Below the pieces are notes generated by a model, which was given only the letters and a program-made list of their open reading frames with translations, was not told the DNA's origin and ran no database searches. This document shows, in pieces, positions 26,040-54,448 of a DNA stretch of 64,000 bases. The stretch is taken from NCBI GenBank assembly GCA_003290465.1, contig CP030759.1, forward strand, positions 1,205,144 to 1,269,143, read 5' to 3'. This stretch comes from Candidatus Sumerlaea chitinivorans (GTDB lineage Bacteria; Sumerlaeota; Sumerlaeia; Sumerlaeales; Sumerlaeaceae). The position numbers and the translations under genes are program-made. Every line of letters starts with the position of its first letter. The stretch's first letter is position 1.

Positions 26040-28412
26040 CTATTCTGCAGAGTTTTCCCCCTTGGAGTTCGCAGCGGCAAGGGCTTGGCGAAACTGGATC
26101 TCGTAGAACCGGGCATATCGCCCACCCAATTTCACAAGTTCGTCGTGGGTACCACGTTCTACGATTTTCCCCTGATCAAGCACGAGAATGCTGTCCGCAT
26201 GCAGAATCGTGGAGAGTCGGTGGGCGATGACAAAGACCGTCCGGCCCTTGATGATGCGGCTAAGGGCTTCTTGGATGAGAGCTTCAGTCTCGGAGTCGAG
26301 CTGGCTGGTGGCCTCGTCCAGGATAAGGATTGGGGCGTTCTTCACAAATGCACGGGCAATGGCCAAACGTTGGCGTTCTCCGCCCGAGAGACGGACGCCG
26401 CGCCCACCGACCACTGTGTCGTAGCCGTGGGGCAATCGCATGATAAAATTGTGGGCATTTGCTGCTTTTGCGGCTTCGATGATTCGCTCCCGAGGAATAT
26501 CATCCGGCATACCGTACGCAATGTTACGGGCGATGGTGTCATTGAAGAGAATCACATCCTGAGTTATGATGGCAATCTGGTCGCGCAGAGAACGCAGCCG
26601 AACACTGCGGATATCCACACCATCAAATAGGATCCGTCCCTCGGTGGGGTCGTAAAAGCGCGGCAGTAGATTTACAAGGGTGGTTTTACCCGCCCCCGTT
26701 TCGCCAACAATCGCGGTGACATGGCCGGCGGGGACGGTGAAGTGGACATCCTTCAGCACATGGTGGGACTCCGCAGAATACCGAAACCACACGTGCTCGA
26801 AGGAAATCTCGCGTTGGACAGGTCGCAGTTCGGGAGCACTCGGGTCATCCACAATCTTCGCTTTTGTGTCTAAGACGCGGAATACCCGATCACTCCCAGC
26901 CATGCCACGTTGAATTTTTGCAATGACCCGGCTGCTGCCCTTTAGGGGGCGGAAAACTTGTGTGAGGAACAAAATAAAGAGGACGAAGTCTGAGCCGCTA
27001 AGCTCGCGAGTCTGAAGCACATAGTAGCCACCCGCCAGAATCATGGCAGAGACTGTCACGATGCCCAAGAGAGCGACCAAACCAGTTCCGAGCTCTTCGG
27101 CGATGACTGTTTTTAGAGTGCGACCGAAAACATTCCAGCTTTCACGCTCGTAGCGGTTTGCCTCCTTCGTCTCCATATTGTAAGCCTTCACGACCCGGAT
27201 TCCGCTGAATGTCTCTTCGGCTATTGAGGCAATTTGGGCACGGATCTCTTGGACACGCTTTGAGATTTTACGCACCTTGCGCCCAATTCCATAGAGCAGC
27301 AATCCCAGAATCGGGGCGACGCCAAAACTGAGCAGCGTGAGTGGCGGAGAAATAAAGAGCATTGCGATGATGAGCGTGACAACCGTGAGAGGCGTTTTGA
27401 GAACATTTGAGAAAAGCACTTCAATGGCGCCGCTGATCGCCATGACATCTTGCATGATTGTGGATAGAAGCGTACCGACAGCCCGGCGATTGTAGTACTC
27501 CATGTCCAGCGTCAGCATATGCCTGTAGACATGGTTGCGGAGCCGTAACAAACAGAGGTTTCCCAGATAGGCGCTCAAGTACCCCGCAAAAAAGGCGGCA
27601 GTCACCATGCAGAGCGCAGAGACGACCATGGCCCCCAGAATCAGACCCAGCAAACGGAACTTATTCTCGGAGCTGGTCATGACGTAGTCCTGAAGTCGCT
27701 CAAGATACGGAAGTGTGCGTTTCGTGAACTCGGCTTTGAGGGACGAAATCCATCCCGTGTGGTGCTTTTTCGTGAGCACGGGCACGGGCACATCCTTCAG
27801 CTTAGTGGTGAGGAGTGCAACAGCCGGTGGAGCCCCCTCAGGATAGATTTCGAACCACTCGTGAGGATCGAGCCCATGTAGATTGGTTTCCCCTTGCGGT
27901 AGGATAATGGTGAGCTTGACGCCACGTTGTGCAGAAACCATGCGGCCAAAATAACATTGGGCCCAGCCACTTTCATCAATTCGGTGAACTTGTGATAAAT
28001 CAAGAATGACCCACTTGTGCGGGGGCTTGAGTAACGCTGCTAAAGCGCCGTGGAGTTCCTCCGCCGCACGTGATCCCGCAAGTTCCCCTGCGGCGCGCAA
28101 GGCATACGTTTCCTCCCCAACGGGTTGAGGCGGAGCAAGCTCGAATGATGCTTTTTCAGCGGCCTTGGTGACATCGGTCAGACGGTTCTTGATAAGAAGC
28201 TCAAGTGCGGGACGAGTAAGCGAAAGTGTCGTCACTGTGAACAGGGCCTCAAAGAGCATCGCTAGTACAAGGCCAGCGACGACCCACTTGGTGCCATGCA
28301 AATACGTCACGAGACGCCGGTAAAGGCCTAAATCCGTGTAGCGACGTTTACTCACTCGGCCGACTTCCCACCGACAGCGCTTTCGAGCTTCTGCAAATAA
28401 ATCGCGAGACAA
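26040..28412 (-). CDS. ABC exporter (fused TMD-NBD, MsbA-like) with STAS-like domain inserted after TM1
   Basis: 790 aa; NBD motifs GETGAGKTTL (Walker A), LSGGERQRLAIARAF (signature), ILILDEATSQLD (Walker B), AHRLSTI. Between TM1 (WVVAGLVLAMLFEALFTVTTLSL) and the next TM helix lies ~170 aa including YALRAAGELAGSRAAEELHGALAALLKPPHKWVILDLSQVHRIDESGWAQCYFGRMVSAQRGVKLTIILP, matching the anti-sigma-antagonist (STAS) pattern. Start overlaps the upstream ORF by about 60 bp. Confidence 0.8.
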   Translation of the reverse strand: MSRDLFAEARKRCRWEVGRVSKRRYTDLGLYRRLVTYLHGTKWVVAGLVLAMLFEALFTVTTLSLTRPALELLIKNRLTDVTKAAEKASFELAPPQPVGEETYALRAAGELAGSRAAEELHGALAALLKPPHKWVILDLSQVHRIDESGWAQCYFGRMVSAQRGVKLTIILPQGETNLHGLDPHEWFEIYPEGAPPAVALLTTKLKDVPVPVLTKKHHTGWISSLKAEFTKRTLPYLERLQDYVMTSSENKFRLLGLILGAMVVSALCMVTAAFFAGYLSAYLGNLCLLRLRNHVYRHMLTLDMEYYNRRAVGTLLSTIMQDVMAISGAIEVLFSNVLKTPLTVVTLIIAMLFISPPLTLLSFGVAPILGLLLYGIGRKVRKISKRVQEIRAQIASIAEETFSGIRVVKAYNMETKEANRYERESWNVFGRTLKTVIAEELGTGLVALLGIVTVSAMILAGGYYVLQTRELSGSDFVLFILFLTQVFRPLKGSSRVIAKIQRGMAGSDRVFRVLDTKAKIVDDPSAPELRPVQREISFEHVWFRYSAESHHVLKDVHFTVPAGHVTAIVGETGAGKTTLVNLLPRFYDPTEGRILFDGVDIRSVRLRSLRDQIAIITQDVILFNDTIARNIAYGMPDDIPRERIIEAAKAANAHNFIMRLPHGYDTVVGGRGVRLSGGERQRLAIARAFVKNAPILILDEATSQLDSETEALIQEALSRIIKGRTVFVIAHRLSTILHADSILVLDQGKIVERGTHDELVKLGGRYARFYEIQFRQALAAANSKGENSAE

Positions 28413-29053: not shown

Positions 29054-29389
29054 CCTGAGCCTTGGTCTTAGCCACTCCGGTTCACAAATCAATGCGAATG
29101 CACTAACGCGCGAATAACAAAAGCATTCGCAATGGGGCAGATTGAACCGCGCGATGACAATGAAAACAGGTGTTTTGCAATTCAGCTACCTGAACTGGAG
29201 ATCAGTTTCGGCAATGCATAGAAAGGCCGATGGATTGGATCGTTACAAACGTACATTCGTTTATCTTGATCGTCGAATCACAGGAACAATGAAGTCGTAA
29301 GTAATGTCAGAATAACCGAGAAGCGCTGGCCGCGCGCTCTCAAGTGAGGGGTGTGATCGCAGTCGAAGTCCACTGTGGAGGTGTGTACG

Positions 29390-29779
29390 ATGACTGCTAC
29401 AAACATTTCCCACAAAGTCCTTGTTCTCCTGCCTGAAAGAGACAAGCCCGCATTCGCTGTTTCCACTGGAACTCCACACCCGATTGAATGGGTCGAGGCC
29501 ACGTCACTCGAGGAGGCCGCGCGTATGCTGCGCGAGCTCGAGTTCGATTTTACGGTGATTGATGCGGACAACCCCTCGATTGATTACCGGAAGTGCATTC
29601 ATTTCGTAAAATCCACTCAACCCAAAGCCCGGGTGGTTGTGGCTGCAGAGATTGGGGATGACGAAATGTGGCTGGATGCGCTCGATGCGGGGGCTTGCGA
29701 TCTCGTGGAGAAACCCATTGATGGGACGTATCTTGAGCGTCTGTGCCACCGCGCAGCAAGCCGCGCCGCCGCCGCGTAG
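29390..29779 (+). CDS. Stand-alone receiver (REC)-like domain protein, degenerate
   Basis: ORF 29375..29779; ATG at 29390 preceded by GGAGG. Fold pattern of a CheY-like receiver (KVLVLL...FDFTVIDADNP...ARVVVAAEIGDD...DAGACDLVEKP) with candidate phospho-Asp and conserved Lys, but lacking the N-terminal acidic DD pair and the conserved Thr/Ser. Confidence 0.5.
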   Translation: MTATNISHKVLVLLPERDKPAFAVSTGTPHPIEWVEATSLEEAARMLRELEFDFTVIDADNPSIDYRKCIHFVKSTQPKARVVVAAEIGDDEMWLDALDAGACDLVEKPIDGTYLERLCHRAASRAAAA

Positions 29780-29898
29780 AATTGTTTGCCATAATTTTCT
29801 AAAATTTGTGAAGTGCACCTTGACAACCACCTTCTTGTTTTCGCGAAGTTCTCTTTGTTAGAATGGGAAAATAGCGAATTTTGGTCATAGGAGAGCGC

Positions 29899-30936
29899 AT
29901 GTTACTACCATCGCACTCGAAGAGGAACAAGAAGCGGGTTATTCTTTTTTTAGATACAGGTGATAATTGCCGATGTCCACTCGCAAAAGGCTACCTCACA
30001 AAACTTCTCGAAGAGCGTGGTATACGCCACATTGAGGTTAAAACGGCTGGTGTCATGACGCCAACGGGGCTCCTCCCCCAACCAGAAGTCGTCCAGTTAC
30101 TTAAAGAGGAAGGGGTCGACATCTCGCACCATCGCTCTCACCCCGTCACCGTCCAAATGATCGAAGATGCCGATCTCATCCTTGGGATGTCGTCTTTTCA
30201 CGTCCAGACGGCGATTCGCCGGTCGCCGGCCGCTCGGGGCAAAGCATTTCTTCTCAAAGAATATGTGGGTTATAGCGGCAAGGCCATCCAAATTGGCGAC
30301 CCAATGGGGGGGACGATGGAAATCTTCAAGAAATGCTTCGAGCAAATCAAGGATGCCCTCGAAAAGCTCGTCGAAATGGATATTATCCGCAAGCCGCCCG
30401 AAGACTGGACCGAACCCCCAGCACGAGCTCCGCGCGAAGGTGAACCCTTAGAGGCAGAGGCTGTAGGGGCAGGCGGAGATGGGCACGTAGGTTCGACCAC
30501 AACCGCAAAAAAAGAAACGGCTGCTGCAGGAGCGATCGAAGCTGGTACAAAACCCCGGCGCCGAGGGCGCCCACCCAAAAGCGCGCAGAAATCCGTAGAG
30601 GTGGCCCAATCCGCAGAACTCAAACGCAAGCGGGGACGTCCGCCGAAAAGCGCCAAAGCCGGTGAAGCTCAGGCGCCAGCAAAAGCTCCAAAAATAGGAA
30701 AGGCTACCGCCGCCGAGACAGGGCGCCGGAGAGCGAGTGCCCCCAAAGCCAAGAAAGCGGCAGCAGGACGGAGCAGACGCGTAGCGGTCAAAGGTTCTGC
30801 GAAAGCGGAATCAGCCCCAAAAGTGAGAGAAAAAAGCACTTCTAAGAAGCAGAAGACCGGGGAGAAAACCTCAACCAGAACTCCTCAACGTACAAAGAAA
30901 GCATCTGCAAAAACAGCTACAAAAAAATCCAAGTAA
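29899..30936 (+). CDS. LMW-PTP-fold protein with Cys-to-Asp P-loop substitution and C-terminal AT-hook tail
   Basis: ORF 29881..30936 (TTG); ATG at 29899 preceded by AGGAG. N-terminus VILFLDTGDNCRCPLAKG aligns residue-for-residue with the LMW-PTP P-loop (I-x-F-V-C-T-G-N-x-C-R-S-P), with Asp at the nucleophile position; DPMGG general-acid loop retained. C-terminal ~180 aa Lys/Ala/Pro-rich with two AT-hook cores (KPRRRGRPPKS, KRKRGRPPKS). Confidence 0.65.
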   Translation: MLLPSHSKRNKKRVILFLDTGDNCRCPLAKGYLTKLLEERGIRHIEVKTAGVMTPTGLLPQPEVVQLLKEEGVDISHHRSHPVTVQMIEDADLILGMSSFHVQTAIRRSPAARGKAFLLKEYVGYSGKAIQIGDPMGGTMEIFKKCFEQIKDALEKLVEMDIIRKPPEDWTEPPARAPREGEPLEAEAVGAGGDGHVGSTTTAKKETAAAGAIEAGTKPRRRGRPPKSAQKSVEVAQSAELKRKRGRPPKSAKAGEAQAPAKAPKIGKATAAETGRRRASAPKAKKAAAGRSRRVAVKGSAKAESAPKVREKSTSKKQKTGEKTSTRTPQRTKKASAKTATKKSK

Positions 30937-30948
30937 GGAGCACTGTGC

Positions 30949-32934
30949 ATGAACAGTAGCTATCGTTCAATGTCAGTTAACGTGATTCTTTTACTACTCG
31001 CGGGAGTGCTAATTGGAAACGTATCAGTTGGCGCTCCCGAGAAAACGCGCAAGTCTCGTGTCACGCTAAAAGATGAGCAGCCAGAATTATCAACGACCCA
31101 TGTCAATGGGCCTTCTGTCGCATCTGGCAAGAATGACAAGATAAGCGCGCAGTCAGATGGTCCGACTTCAAGGGTTGCCACCTCCAAGGATGGAAAGACG
31201 GACAAAGTCACAACCTCCATTGATGTCGGGACGCCTGGGAATTTCCTGCTTGCTCGCGTCAAGGACAAGTACCTGCGGGATCCCGATGTCATGAACTATA
31301 AGCAACTGATGGACATCACCGAAGGTGGGGTGTGGACGGATGTCCGTGATCGTGAAACACTTGAGGACATGGTCCTTCAGGAAGTACTCTTTGATATCGT
31401 CCCCACTCTTCGTAAGGAGGAACATGGGAGCCTCCATGGTACGTATCCTTCCACCATGGAAGAGCGCATGTACCTTCGGGTCAGGATGCGCGAAGAGATA
31501 GAAAAAGAAACCACCCCGACTCGCGAGCAGCTCGAAGAATGGACTGCACGCAACATTTCCCGCTTCACCCGACCTGAGCGCGTGCACGCTTATCACCTCT
31601 TCATGCAGGTCTCGAAGGATAATCCGACCAGCAGCCTTGAAGCAGTGCGGCAGCGGATGGAAAAGGTAAAACAAGAGGCGGACGCCGGGACATCTTTTGC
31701 GCAGCTTGCTCGCAAGTACTCGGAAGCTGCCAGCGCCAAGGTGGGAGGCGAGATTGGATGGGTGACCCGCCGAATGCCAATCGGCGCGGAAAATAAGCCG
31801 ATGAACATTGTCCTCGAGAACGCCCTGTTTGCTCTTAAAACCGGTCAGGTCTCGGACATTCTTCAGACCTCCCATGGGCTCCACCTTATGTATGTTGCGG
31901 ACCGGCTCACGACCTACGTTCCTACAGTGGATGACCTCATTACAAGCCGTATCTTGCCGAGAAGTGCACAGGTGGAACTTGTTGCGCAGAAATGGCGGGA
32001 TTTGACGTCCGCAACCCGTCAGCGCTATCACGCGAAGATCCTCTTCGATCTAAATAAAGGCACCAAGCTGACGACCGACGTTCCTGCGGTGGAGTTCAAC
32101 GGCCAGAAGTGGACGGTGGGGGAACTTGAGCAATTGTATGGTCAGCGCTTCGTTTCCGCCTACCGCCTGCGTCAAGACACGACAGAGACTTTGGTAGGGC
32201 TCCTGAATGAAGTCCTGGACGAAATGGCGCAGGTACAGCTCGCACTCGACAGGAAGCTGGACAAAGATACCACCGTCGCCCGCAATTTGAAACTTCTTCA
32301 TGATCGAGTACTTTTCAAGAAAGCCTTCCAGCAGTACGTTGCGCAAACTTCACCGATTACTGAGAAGAAAATCAGAGATAAGTACGAGGCGGAAAAGGAC
32401 CGGAATCGGCTACCAGAGGCCACGGGTTACATCATTTCGATCAAAGTGCAACCAACGACGGTAGGCTTGGACCGCGAAGAAGCGCGAAAAATCGCGCGCG
32501 AGAAAGCTGAAGAGATCCGCAAACAGATCCTCGCGGGAGCTGATATCGAAAAGCTTGCTCGGGAGCACTCCCAAGACGATCGCGCCTCCTCGGGCGGACT
32601 GGTCCCGCGAAGCCGTCTTGCATCGCTGCATGACCTCTCGGGCCGACGTTTTGCCGCAGTGGCAAGTACACTCAAACCCGGTGAGGTGAGCGATGTGCGT
32701 GACTTTGGCGACGTCTTCGTAGTGGTGAAGCTTGTCGAACGCTGGCCCGGTGAGCCTCCTGCTATTGAAGAGGTGCGCGAGCGCTTGAAGGCAGCTCTCA
32801 CGAATGAGGCAAACCGTACTGCACGTGACCGGCTGATTAACGCGGCTGCACAAAAAGGCCTGTTGCGGTGGGCGAATCCGGCTGCAAGTTATGGAATCAC
32901 GCCCAAACCCAATCTGGCAGATGACCCGCAATGA
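30949..32934 (+). CDS. Periplasmic chaperone / peptidyl-prolyl isomerase, SurA/PpiD/PrsA-like (parvulin domains)
   Basis: 661 aa; signal peptide MSVNVILLLLAGVLIGNVSVGA; parvulin-like segments (FAQLARKYSEAASAKVGGEIGWVTR; LAREHSQDDRASSGGLVPRSRL...); ATG preceded by AAGGAG; 13 bp after the upstream gene. Confidence 0.7.
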   Translation: MNSSYRSMSVNVILLLLAGVLIGNVSVGAPEKTRKSRVTLKDEQPELSTTHVNGPSVASGKNDKISAQSDGPTSRVATSKDGKTDKVTTSIDVGTPGNFLLARVKDKYLRDPDVMNYKQLMDITEGGVWTDVRDRETLEDMVLQEVLFDIVPTLRKEEHGSLHGTYPSTMEERMYLRVRMREEIEKETTPTREQLEEWTARNISRFTRPERVHAYHLFMQVSKDNPTSSLEAVRQRMEKVKQEADAGTSFAQLARKYSEAASAKVGGEIGWVTRRMPIGAENKPMNIVLENALFALKTGQVSDILQTSHGLHLMYVADRLTTYVPTVDDLITSRILPRSAQVELVAQKWRDLTSATRQRYHAKILFDLNKGTKLTTDVPAVEFNGQKWTVGELEQLYGQRFVSAYRLRQDTTETLVGLLNEVLDEMAQVQLALDRKLDKDTTVARNLKLLHDRVLFKKAFQQYVAQTSPITEKKIRDKYEAEKDRNRLPEATGYIISIKVQPTTVGLDREEARKIAREKAEEIRKQILAGADIEKLAREHSQDDRASSGGLVPRSRLASLHDLSGRRFAAVASTLKPGEVSDVRDFGDVFVVVKLVERWPGEPPAIEEVRERLKAALTNEANRTARDRLINAAAQKGLLRWANPAASYGITPKPNLADDPQ

Positions 32935-33094: not shown

Positions 33095-33340
33095 TCATTC
33101 GGCTGGGGGTTCGGCGACCATTATTTGCCACTCGACTTCGCTGAACAATGCCGCAACGTCAGCCTCGATGTCTTCGGGGTCAGCCCACGGCTTGATGGCG
33201 AACTCAATCCATGCTCGGTCGTGCTCATCACACATGAAGTGAATTCCCGCCAACTCGCGGTGTTGGTGGAGAAACTGTTGGATGAGATCGCGATGACGGG
33301 CCCGCCACTCGAGCAGCTCACTCAGTGTCATGACCGACAC
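33095..33340 (-). CDS. Hypothetical small acidic protein
   Basis: 81 aa ORF (MSVMTLSELLEWRARHRDLIQQFLHQHRELAGIHFMCDEHDRAWIEF...); protein-like composition; no motif recognised. Confidence 0.4.
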   Translation of the reverse strand: MSVMTLSELLEWRARHRDLIQQFLHQHRELAGIHFMCDEHDRAWIEFAIKPWADPEDIEADVAALFSEVEWQIMVAEPPAE

Positions 33341-33352
33341 TCACCATAAAAA

Positions 33353-33442
33353 TGGCGGTGGGAGTAGGATTCGAACCTACGAGGGGCTTGCACCCCTGGC
33401 GGTTTTCAAGACCGCTGCCTTAAACCACTCGGCCATCCCACC
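33353..33442 (-). tRNA. tRNA-Ser (anticodon TGA)
   Basis: Reverse strand reads GGTGGGA-TG-GCCGAGTGGTTTAAGGC-A-GCGGT-CTTGAAA-ACCGC-(long variable arm CAGGGGTGCAAGCCCCTC)-GTAGG-TTCGAAT-CCTAC-TCCCACC-G-CCA. 7-bp acceptor stem, type-II variable arm, anticodon UGA, encoded CCA. Coordinates checked against the overlapping ORF's codon frame. Confidence 0.9.
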
Positions 33443-53281: not shown

Positions 53282-54448
53282 TTGCTTTCTAGGGTCCGCT
53301 ATCATCCGTTGATAGCCATGGGTGCAATTAATTTCAGCAGGAAGTGGTCAAACCTTTTCGGGCTTGTGTTTGTGGGCGCTGCAATTGTTTGGAGCGTTGT
53401 GGCCATCCCGTGCTGGAGCACATCGTCACAAGCACCATTCAGTGCGCGAGGTCAGGGGAACGCAGCCAATACGTCTCGTTCTGGCAAGGGCACACATCCT
53501 GCTCTTCCTTCCGTTCGACTCGGTGATATTGCCCCGCTGGATTTGAGCAAACTGCCTCAGTTACCCACAGGGGAACGCTATGTAGCAGTGGTGAATGGCA
53601 CGACAATTACGGAGCGACGTTTCGCTGCAGAGCTTGCCCTTGCGATCGAACAGCAACAGTTCTCACAGATTCCTTCTCCCACGACGTCCGATGAAGCCGC
53701 GGGATTGCGAGCCGCCCTCGCCCAACCGGTCCTCGATCAACTCATCGCCAATGTTTTGATCAAGCAGCTTGCAGAGCGCCGACGAGTTTCTGTCGCCGAT
53801 GCAGAAGTAGAGCGTGCTGTCAACCAAACGAACGAGAAGCTCCCTCCGGGACGGAAGTTGCAGGACCTCGCGGTCTCCTATGGCCTCACTTTTGACGAGA
53901 TCAAAGATACGTTTCGAGCGCTGCTTCTTGCCGCGAAAATTGAAGACACTTTTGGGCGTGATGAGCGAGATCCCACTCCAGAGGAGCTCCGGAACTTCCT
54001 CAAGAGCCATCCTGAAGCAAACACACCAAACGAAGAAATTCGGGTGAGTGCGATTTTGCTCAAGTTGCCGAATCAAGCCACAACCGAGACTCGTGAGCGG
54101 ACCCGCAGGCTTGCGGAGAGAATTGTCCAAGAGCTGCGTGGCGGAGCCGATTTCTGTGAGCTTGCGATGAACTACTCACAGGATCGGGCTTCTGCTCCAA
54201 AGTGTGGTGATCTTGGTTACGTTTCACGCGGCAAGATGGATCCAGAATTCGACAAGGTCGCGTTCTCATTACCAATCGGAAAAATCAGCGACGTGGTGGC
54301 CACCCCTCGCGGGTTTTACATCATCTTGGTGCGCGAGAAACATCCTACGAGCGCTCGTCAGGCTTATCGTCAGTTCAAAAAACGTGAAGCCTACCTGCGG
54401 TGGTTCGAAGAAGAAAAACGCAAGGCAAAGATCGAAAAATTCTTGTAG
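53282..54448 (+). CDS. Peptidyl-prolyl cis-trans isomerase, parvulin/SurA-like
   Basis: 388 aa; N-terminal TM/signal anchor; C-terminal PpiC pattern FCELAMNYSQDRASAPKCGDLGYVSRGKMDPEFDKVAFSLPIGKISDVVATPRGFYIILV. Start may be at the internal Met at 53318. Confidence 0.75.
   Translation: MLSRVRYHPLIAMGAINFSRKWSNLFGLVFVGAAIVWSVVAIPCWSTSSQAPFSARGQGNAANTSRSGKGTHPALPSVRLGDIAPLDLSKLPQLPTGERYVAVVNGTTITERRFAAELALAIEQQQFSQIPSPTTSDEAAGLRAALAQPVLDQLIANVLIKQLAERRRVSVADAEVERAVNQTNEKLPPGRKLQDLAVSYGLTFDEIKDTFRALLLAAKIEDTFGRDERDPTPEELRNFLKSHPEANTPNEEIRVSAILLKLPNQATTETRERTRRLAERIVQELRGGADFCELAMNYSQDRASAPKCGDLGYVSRGKMDPEFDKVAFSLPIGKISDVVATPRGFYIILVREKHPTSARQAYRQFKKREAYLRWFEEEKRKAKIEKFL

Follow-up and report, generated by a model that had tools for sequence, protein, structure and literature searches.

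The 64,000-nucleotide stretch analyzed here (the window; contig CP030759.1, positions 1,205,144 to 1,269,143) comes from Candidatus Sumerlaea chitinivorans, of the phylum Sumerlaeota, formerly BRC1, and carries at 29390 to 29779 a small gene for a receiver-like protein with an incomplete phosphorylation site. We conclude that this 129-amino-acid protein is probably a stand-alone pseudo-receiver that has been kept for phosphorylation-independent protein-protein interaction, mainly through its β4-α4-β5 surface. The proposed binding face would be the segment from G89 to L105, which carries the pattern GD[DE]ExW...GAxDL and is singled out by its conservation. Candidate partners would be, in order of preference, a YwlE-like protein with an Asp in place of its nucleophilic Cys, encoded downstream; a divergently transcribed unit encoding a 233-amino-acid protein and a STAS-domain ATP-binding cassette (ABC) exporter; and a Clp protease.

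Receiver fold and gene start

A preliminary description of the window had placed a receiver-like protein of about 130 amino acids at this position, and a single-domain open reading frame (ORF) was found there, with its stop codon, TAG, at 29777 to 29779. The strings by which the receiver had been recognized are present in the translation, namely KVLVLL at residues 9 to 14, FDFTVIDADNP at residues 52 to 62, and VEKP at residues 106 to 109. A hidden Markov model search with PF00072 (Response_reg) returned a significant if marginal match (score, 32.0 bits, with a gathering cutoff of 30.2; E value, 1.5e-7), the alignment of which spanned only profile positions 26 to 106 and left the β1-α1 part unrecognized. 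At E values of ≤1, the Pfam scan gave nothing else except a spurious Lambda_Kil match, and there was no match to the dedicated pseudo-receiver families (e.g., FleQ, PF06490, and others in PMC12632262). The closest solved relative by sequence was CheY of Thermotoga maritima (1tmy; phmmer E value, 7e-7).

Structure prediction with AlphaFold2 (AF2) likewise indicated receiver topology. A single-sequence model was unusable (predicted local distance difference test [pLDDT], 43.6), and the model used was instead built with a 60-sequence alignment of single-domain relatives, which gave a pLDDT of 89.5 and a predicted template modeling (TM) score of 0.83. The topology of that model is complete (β1-α1-β2-α2-β3-α3-β4-α4-β5-α5), with strands at residues 8 to 13, 32 to 37, 54 to 58, 81 to 86, and 104 to 107 and helices at residues 16 to 22, 40 to 49, 66 to 76, 91 to 100, and 112 to 128. 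Helix α1 is short and is followed by a Pro/Gly-rich loop (residues 23 to 31) of lower pLDDT. When the model was compared with the PDB using Foldseek, the best 50 of 351 matches at E values of ≤1e-3 were all receivers or receiver-like domains with TM scores of about 0.7 to 0.78, including KdpE, FleR, CosR, PmrA, and the atypical receivers of TadZ/CpaE proteins. The receiver assignment made earlier thus stood, and we conclude, from sequence and model together, that the protein is a divergent receiver-fold protein.

Public records disagree on the length of the protein. The window protein has the same sequence as GIX44153.1 and RMH29077.1 (100% identity) and was found on 16 contigs of Ca. Sumerlaea chitinivorans, and the public labels are "response regulator" or "DNA-binding NtrC family response regulator." In the reference genome, AXA35885.1 is an 84-amino-acid "hypothetical protein" that begins at M46 and occupies 29525 to 29779 of the window. 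The ATG at 29390 was taken as the start because a GGAGG box lies 8 nt upstream of it; an alternative GTG at 29375 falls within that box and was discarded. The first 45 codons are constrained, with six synonymous changes and one nonsynonymous change relative to L050, the 90%-identical strain that served as the reference for substitution rates, and the 60 nt just upstream of the gene are nearly unchanged in the same strain. Because of the ribosome-binding site and the constrained N-terminal codons, we conclude that the 129-amino-acid form is correct and that AXA35885.1 is a truncated call. Nothing on the gene was found in the literature on Ca. Sumerlaea chitinivorans, and the "response regulator" and "NtrC-family" labels are no evidence of a two-component pathway.

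Loss of phosphorylation residues

Residue equivalences were taken from an alignment to Escherichia coli CheY and T. maritima CheY. The alignment supported the candidate phospho-acceptor and Lys named in the preliminary description (D58 and K108), as well as the two absences that it had reported: L14 and P15 occupy the place of the N-terminal acidic pair, and A86 that of the conserved Thr/Ser. Three of the five phosphorylation residues (both positions of the acidic pair, DD, and the Thr/Ser) are therefore gone. The Y-T coupling pair is gone too, as L105 stands in place of the aromatic switch (Y106 in E. coli CheY and F101 in T. maritima CheY), a position at which 13 of 14 family members have Leu. 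The acidic pocket is thus not intact, and the pseudo-receiver reading survives. Because the metal ligands are absent, the protein most likely cannot catalyze phosphotransfer. Since D58 is present, the protein should not be counted as an aspartate-less receiver (ALR).

The same positions have been lost piecemeal across the family. The D58 position is Asp in 12 of 14 members; L020 and L049 have Glu there and also carry Arg at the K108 position, which in L022 and P0019 is occupied by Thr. The DD slot reads EE, SN, SP, GK, GG, SA, ET, DS, or DT in different orthologues. Written in the order DD/D/T/K, the syntenic orthologues carry EE/D/T/K, SN/D/V/K, SP/D/T/K, GK/D/V/K, ET/D/T/K, ET/E/T/R, DS/D/T/T, and DT/E/T/R, such that none has the full catalytic set and no position of the five is kept throughout the orthologues. 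Such mosaic loss is what a lack of selection on phosphochemistry would be expected to produce. Loss of the Thr to Ala is confined to the lineage of the window species, and Thr is kept in most orthologues. In L050, the A86 codon has changed synonymously from GCA to GCG, indicating that Ala at this position is maintained.

Several features weigh against a protein indifferent to phosphorylation. Most orthologues, like the window protein, still have D58 and K108. E16, which lies two positions past the empty DD slot, could together with the conserved D60 form an unconventional metal site. Moreover, the CheY T87A mutant can still be phosphorylated, and A86 alone would be no block.

These features raise the alternative that the protein is a working orphan single-domain response regulator. 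Acetyl phosphate, an Hpt protein, or an unlinked histidine kinase would then phosphorylate D58, E16 and/or D60 would stand in for the missing metal ligands, and the protein would signal like CheY or DivK. Consistent with that alternative, the K108-P109 pair is kept alongside D58, D60 occurs in 12 of 14 family members, about half of the orthologues have an acidic residue at the position aligned with E16, orphan receivers are common, and a relative with the canonical DD/D/T/K set, P0040, shares the motif GDDxLW. Nonetheless, the metal-binding slot is hydrophobic/Pro in the window protein and its acidity is not conserved across syntenic orthologues, the Asp or Lys is replaced in L020, L049, and L022 while the rest of the protein is conserved, the Pro four residues after the Asp is Ser in the close variant P0004, and the Pfam match leaves out the entire β1-α1 part. 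Even if the protein were phosphorylated, Y-T coupling would be inoperable because both the Thr and the aromatic switch are missing. We consider a working orphan regulator unlikely.

The genomic setting offers no cognate kinase. The preliminary description had noted that no histidine kinase is adjacent, and no HisKA or HATPase_c domain was found among the nonoverlapping called ORFs of ≥200 amino acids in the 64-kb window. In two long orthologous contigs, L011 and L014, there was no histidine kinase within 6 kb on either side.

Conservation and selection

A word-indexed homologue search recovered the species' own protein only, and an exhaustive HMMER scan was needed to find orthologues. The scan returned 518 matches, about a dozen of which were small proteins that make up a family with the GD[DE]ExW...GAxDL pattern. 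Higher-scoring multidomain matches (P0008 to P0023) were set aside as generic multi-receiver proteins and hybrid kinases that add up scores and are no special relatives. Across 14 family members, conservation was lowest where catalysis would reside (0.22 for α1 and 0.29 for the DD slot) and highest at the α4-β5 junction (0.83) and in β5 (0.77), with a further concentration on β3. G89, W94, G101, A102, and D104 are invariant. In the AF2 secondary structure, the G89-L105 block that holds these residues spans the β4-α4 loop, α4, and β5. The family is confined to one Sumerlaeota clade and has a motif of its own, GD[DE]ExW.

Relative to L050, the ratio of nonsynonymous to synonymous substitution rates (dN/dS) of the pseudo-receiver gene was 0.09 at a dS of 0.385 (25 synonymous and 10 nonsynonymous codon changes), and the values for its neighbors were 0.09 for the PpiC gene and 0.03 for the LMWPc domain. 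We conclude that the gene is under purifying selection and is not decaying. Taken together, the mosaic loss of catalytic positions, the location of the conservation, and the low dN/dS suggest that selection acts on the fold and the α4-β5 face and not on phosphochemistry.

Some observations would fit a relic, a onetime response regulator that is turning into a pseudogene: the pseudo-receiver is only 30 to 50% identical between lineages, compared to 63 to 73% for the LMWPc domain and 45 to 65% for the ABC protein, the Pfam threshold is barely passed, and the gene has been lost in L021 and L057. Against decay, the ORF is intact in every lineage examined, the ribosome-binding site is strong, five residues are invariant, and the fold prediction is confident. 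A decaying relic is highly improbable and is effectively ruled out by the dN/dS of 0.09.

The genomic contexts of P0040, P0027, and P0033 were not informative about function. P0027, a nonsyntenic relative of the pseudo-receiver with no Pfam match on record, directly follows another receiver-like ORF (L018, 2 to 568; L019, 1 to 681), an arrangement that suggests tandem small receivers in an unrelated organism.

Comparison with known pseudo-receivers

A pseudo-receiver has been defined as a computationally recognized receiver that lacks at least one of DD, D, T, and K (PMC12632262), a definition that covers the window protein, with three of the five residues absent. Pseudo-receivers make up about 6 to 13% of bacterial receivers, most of those solved dimerize or interact through α4-β5-α5, and their mode of action is largely obscure (PMC12632262). 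Like FrzS, HP1043, ChxR, and the second domain of PleD, the comparison group named in that work, the window protein combines a match to the receiver profile and a (β/α)5 fold with loss of catalytic and Y-T residues, conservation that has moved to the α4-β5 surface, and no linked kinase. Unlike most characterized members, which are fused to DNA-binding or other domains, it has no output domain. ALR domains (PMC4395418) belong to the same broad class of receivers that cannot be phosphorylated. The L020 and L049 proteins, with Glu for the phospho-Asp, would qualify as ALR domains, whereas the window protein keeps D58 and is defective in the metal-binding pair and the Thr.

Two other groups resemble the protein in part. 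T. maritima CheY is similar in size, single-domain organization, fold, and possession of the Asp and Lys-Pro, with about 22% identity over β2 to β5. In contrast to CheY, the window protein lacks the acidic pair, the Thr, and the aromatic switch, its α1 spans only about 7 residues, and its gene has neither chemotaxis genes nor a kinase nearby. The receivers of TadZ/CpaE proteins (4lda, 4dn6, 4dad, and 4myr), which were among the top structural matches (TM score, 0.65 to 0.72; identity, 15 to 20%), are likewise nonphosphorylated interaction or localization modules, but each is part of a fusion with a ParA/MinD-type ATPase. We set aside a TadZ/CpaE-type connection with the type II secretion/type IV pilus genes 8 to 13 kb upstream, as short orthologous contigs keep the pseudo-receiver and LMWPc genes without them.

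Since degenerate receivers are common, the phenomenon itself is ordinary, and degenerate orphan receivers are to be expected in most genomes. Pseudo-receivers and atypical single-domain response regulators are already well known, and what is new is this lineage-restricted pseudo-receiver. It is a compact case: a single domain with a family-specific surface motif, two or three candidate partners adjoining, and an uncultivated phylum. Coordinates of the gene, its key codons, and its neighbors are collected in Table 1.

Table 1. Positions in the window of the pseudo-receiver gene, its key residues, and adjoining features
Feature	Position	Strand	Basis or remark
Pseudo-receiver gene	29390..29779	+	ORF, PF00072 match, AF2 model, Foldseek, dN/dS
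Ribosome-binding site GGAGG	29377..29381	+	Sequence; 8 nt before ATG 29390
Codons L14-P15	29429..29434	+	Slot of metal-binding acidic pair (CheY D12/D13)
Codon D58	29561..29563	+	Phospho-acceptor Asp (E. coli CheY D57, T. maritima CheY D54); followed by conserved D60
Codon A86	29645..29647	+	Replaces Thr/Ser (E. coli CheY T87, T. maritima CheY S82)
G89-L105 block, GD[DE]ExW94...G101 A102 x D104 L105	29654..29704	+	Most conserved in family
Codon K108	29711..29713	+	Conserved Lys (E. coli CheY K109, T. maritima CheY K104); followed by P109
C-terminal tail ASRAAAA	29756..29776	+	Putative degron
Spacer to downstream gene, 119 nt	29780..29898	+	TTGACA at 29820-29825; TTGTTT at 29835-29840
LMW-PTP-fold protein	29899..30936	+	Pfam LMWPc, E value 3.8e-25; candidate partner
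Protein of no assigned family, 233 aa	28352..29053	-	Divergent; C-terminal hydrophobic stretch, possible membrane anchor by eye

The downstream Cys-to-Asp YwlE-like protein

The gene that follows encodes an LMW-PTP-fold protein (LMW-PTP, protein tyrosine phosphatase of low molecular weight) whose closest solved relatives are the YwlE arginine phosphatases. Its P-loop reads DTGDNCRC where the canonical sequence is CTGNTCRS, such that the nucleophilic Cys has become Asp, and the general-acid DP motif is kept. The protein ends in a Lys/Ala/Pro-rich tail with two RGRPPK AT-hooks, and basic tails of this composition occur on nearly all full-length copies, Cys and Asp forms alike. An "LMW phosphatase" annotation of this gene overlooks the absent nucleophile, and the protein would be either a pseudo-phosphatase or an Asp-nucleophile variant. 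A C215D mutant of PTP1B has been characterized (Romsicki 2003, cited in PMC3172300).

The pseudo-receiver gene accompanies only the Asp form. Orthologous loci were found by contig look-ups and by scans of Sumerlaeota genomes and metagenomes with the neighboring gene, of which the metagenome scan contributed only three informative loci. The Asp-variant loci were those of the window, L011, L014, L016, L017, L020 to L022, L049, L052, L054, L055, and L057. In a neighbor-joining tree of 37 Sumerlaeota homologues, the 12 Asp variants formed one clade, with the 25 Cys forms outside it. Of the 12 Asp-variant loci represented in the tree, 9 have a pseudo-receiver gene upstream, as does L017, which was too short for the tree; none of about 25 Cys-form loci has one, and the Asp-variant locus of L054 is too short to judge. 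The adjacency of the two genes is thereby found in about ten distinct lineages (the window and L050, L011, L014, L016, L017, L020, L022, L049, L052, and L055) at 30 to 50% identity of the pseudo-receiver, within a conserved order of the 233-amino-acid gene on the minus strand and then pseudo-receiver, LMWPc, and PpiC genes on the plus strand.

The preliminary description had the pseudo-receiver gene heading an operon, a claim that the sequence between the two genes weakens. The two genes are separated by the spacer of 119 nt, in which a CTTGACAA box (TTGACA) is kept in most orthologues, including L021, which has no pseudo-receiver gene. The 3′ 70 nt of the spacer differ from L050 by one base despite a dS of about 0.4 to 0.5, and the TTGTTT hexamer is followed, after an 18-nt gap, by TG-n-TAGAAT (29856 to 29864), an extended −10-like element (TGTTAGAAT). 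A scan for consensus promoters and terminators gave nothing useful in either intergenic region, and these promoter suggestions are tentative and rest on conservation. Because the spacer is conserved relative to L050 and TTGACA is kept even in L021, the downstream gene probably has its own promoter and 5′ untranslated region in the spacer. Read-through from the pseudo-receiver gene is possible, as there is no terminator-like site on the plus strand of the spacer.

The preliminary description had also suggested a small regulatory module made up of the two genes. The conserved adjacency, restricted to the Asp form, speaks for such a module; the occurrence in a single clade, probably one event, means that the co-occurrence suggests a functional link and is no proof of one. 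We consider the module plausible, and it is possible, though we hold it only tentatively, that the YwlE-like protein with its DNA-binding tail is the partner and that its activity or DNA association is modulated by the pseudo-receiver. Some observations tell against the pairing. The partner assignment draws on one monophyletic clade and so effectively on one event, the LMWPc gene seems to carry its own promoter, L021 and L057 have an Asp-variant gene without a pseudo-receiver, and the divergent 233-amino-acid gene is almost equally well linked to the pseudo-receiver.

A more elaborate version, which we regard as quite unlikely, is that the two proteins are a coevolved pair of "dead" phospho-signaling parts. 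A YwlE-type arginine phosphatase with a histone-H1/AT-hook-like tail would have exchanged its Cys for Asp at the base of one Sumerlaeota clade, and at the same time a receiver without a metal site would have been gained upstream. The acidic β3 loop (D58-x-D60) or the α4-β5 face might then dock on the phosphate-binding loop of the pseudo-phosphatase and control DNA association of the basic protein, and the result would be a switch without phosphorylation, assembled from two-component and phosphatase scaffolds. Whatever the connection, the Cys-to-Asp YwlE-like protein, together with its clade-wide association with the pseudo-receiver, is more unusual than the pseudo-receiver itself.

The divergent exporter unit

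On the other side of the pseudo-receiver gene, the 233-amino-acid gene overlaps the start of the ABC exporter gene (26040 to 28412, minus strand) by 4 nt, and the pair is followed by genes for a GT9 heptosyltransferase and a PMT_2-like protein, an arrangement that is kept in orthologous loci. The partner of the pseudo-receiver could lie in this unit, in which case the role would be regulation of the envelope or of export. The head-to-head 233-amino-acid gene adjoins the pseudo-receiver in L011, L014, L016, L017, L020, and L022, the exporter is kept in all long loci, and the 233-amino-acid protein evolves as fast as the pseudo-receiver (28 to 40% identity). Moreover, the exporter has a weak N-terminal STAS match (E value, 6e-4), and STAS proteins partner-switch with receiver-containing proteins in other bacteria. 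These links are offset by L049, which keeps the pseudo-receiver without the 233-amino-acid gene, by the lack of any Pfam or NCBIfam match, and hence of a domain assignment, for the 233-amino-acid protein, and by the fact that shared intergenic regions are common without a functional link. We give this partner little probability.

The alanine-rich tail and a possible link to proteolysis

The C terminus of the protein suggested a further alternative, namely that the pseudo-receiver is linked to proteolysis, either as an adaptor for Clp resembling CpdR or RssB or as a ClpXP substrate recognized by its ...AAAA end, with the protein level carrying the signal. A nonpolar C-terminal Ala-Ala is the classic ClpX signal, as in the ssrA tag and CtrA, and single-domain or receiver-containing protease adaptors exist, for example RssB. 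Members of the nearest subclade end in ...AVA, ...PAA, ...RAAA, ...RVAA, or ...RRAA (the tails of P0006, P0007, P0010, P0011, P0013, P0025, P0027, and P0038 read RDAAVA, HRAVA, LRPAA, PRAAA, RRVAA, and HRRAA), and an AA or VA end is found in 18 of 60 single-domain relatives, an enrichment that is biased among distant relatives because the query's own Ala tail raises their score. Because no such tail is present in the remaining half of the syntenic orthologues (P0005, P0015, L020, L022, and L049), the Ala tail would not be essential to the function of the family. Furthermore, no protease or adaptor gene lies nearby, and the receivers of CpdR and RssB, both known adaptors, are canonical and can be phosphorylated. 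A proteolytic role is improbable, and the pseudo-receiver kept for interaction through its α4-β5 face remains our preferred account.

Other features of the window

No RNA element was found near the pseudo-receiver gene in Rfam, and two tRNAs lie elsewhere in the window. The window contains two genes for PpiC/SurA-type isomerases (30949 to 32934 and 53282 to 54448, both on the plus strand). The product of the first has 661 amino acids and two rotamase domains, and its gene comes after the LMWPc gene throughout the Asp-variant clade; no PpiC gene was detected downstream of LMWPc in Cys-form loci. Between this gene and a tRNA at 33356 to 33442 on the minus strand lies a small ORF of 78 to 81 amino acids (33095 to 33340, minus strand). 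It had no Pfam match and is found at the same position in L011 and L014, with 42 to 46% identity.

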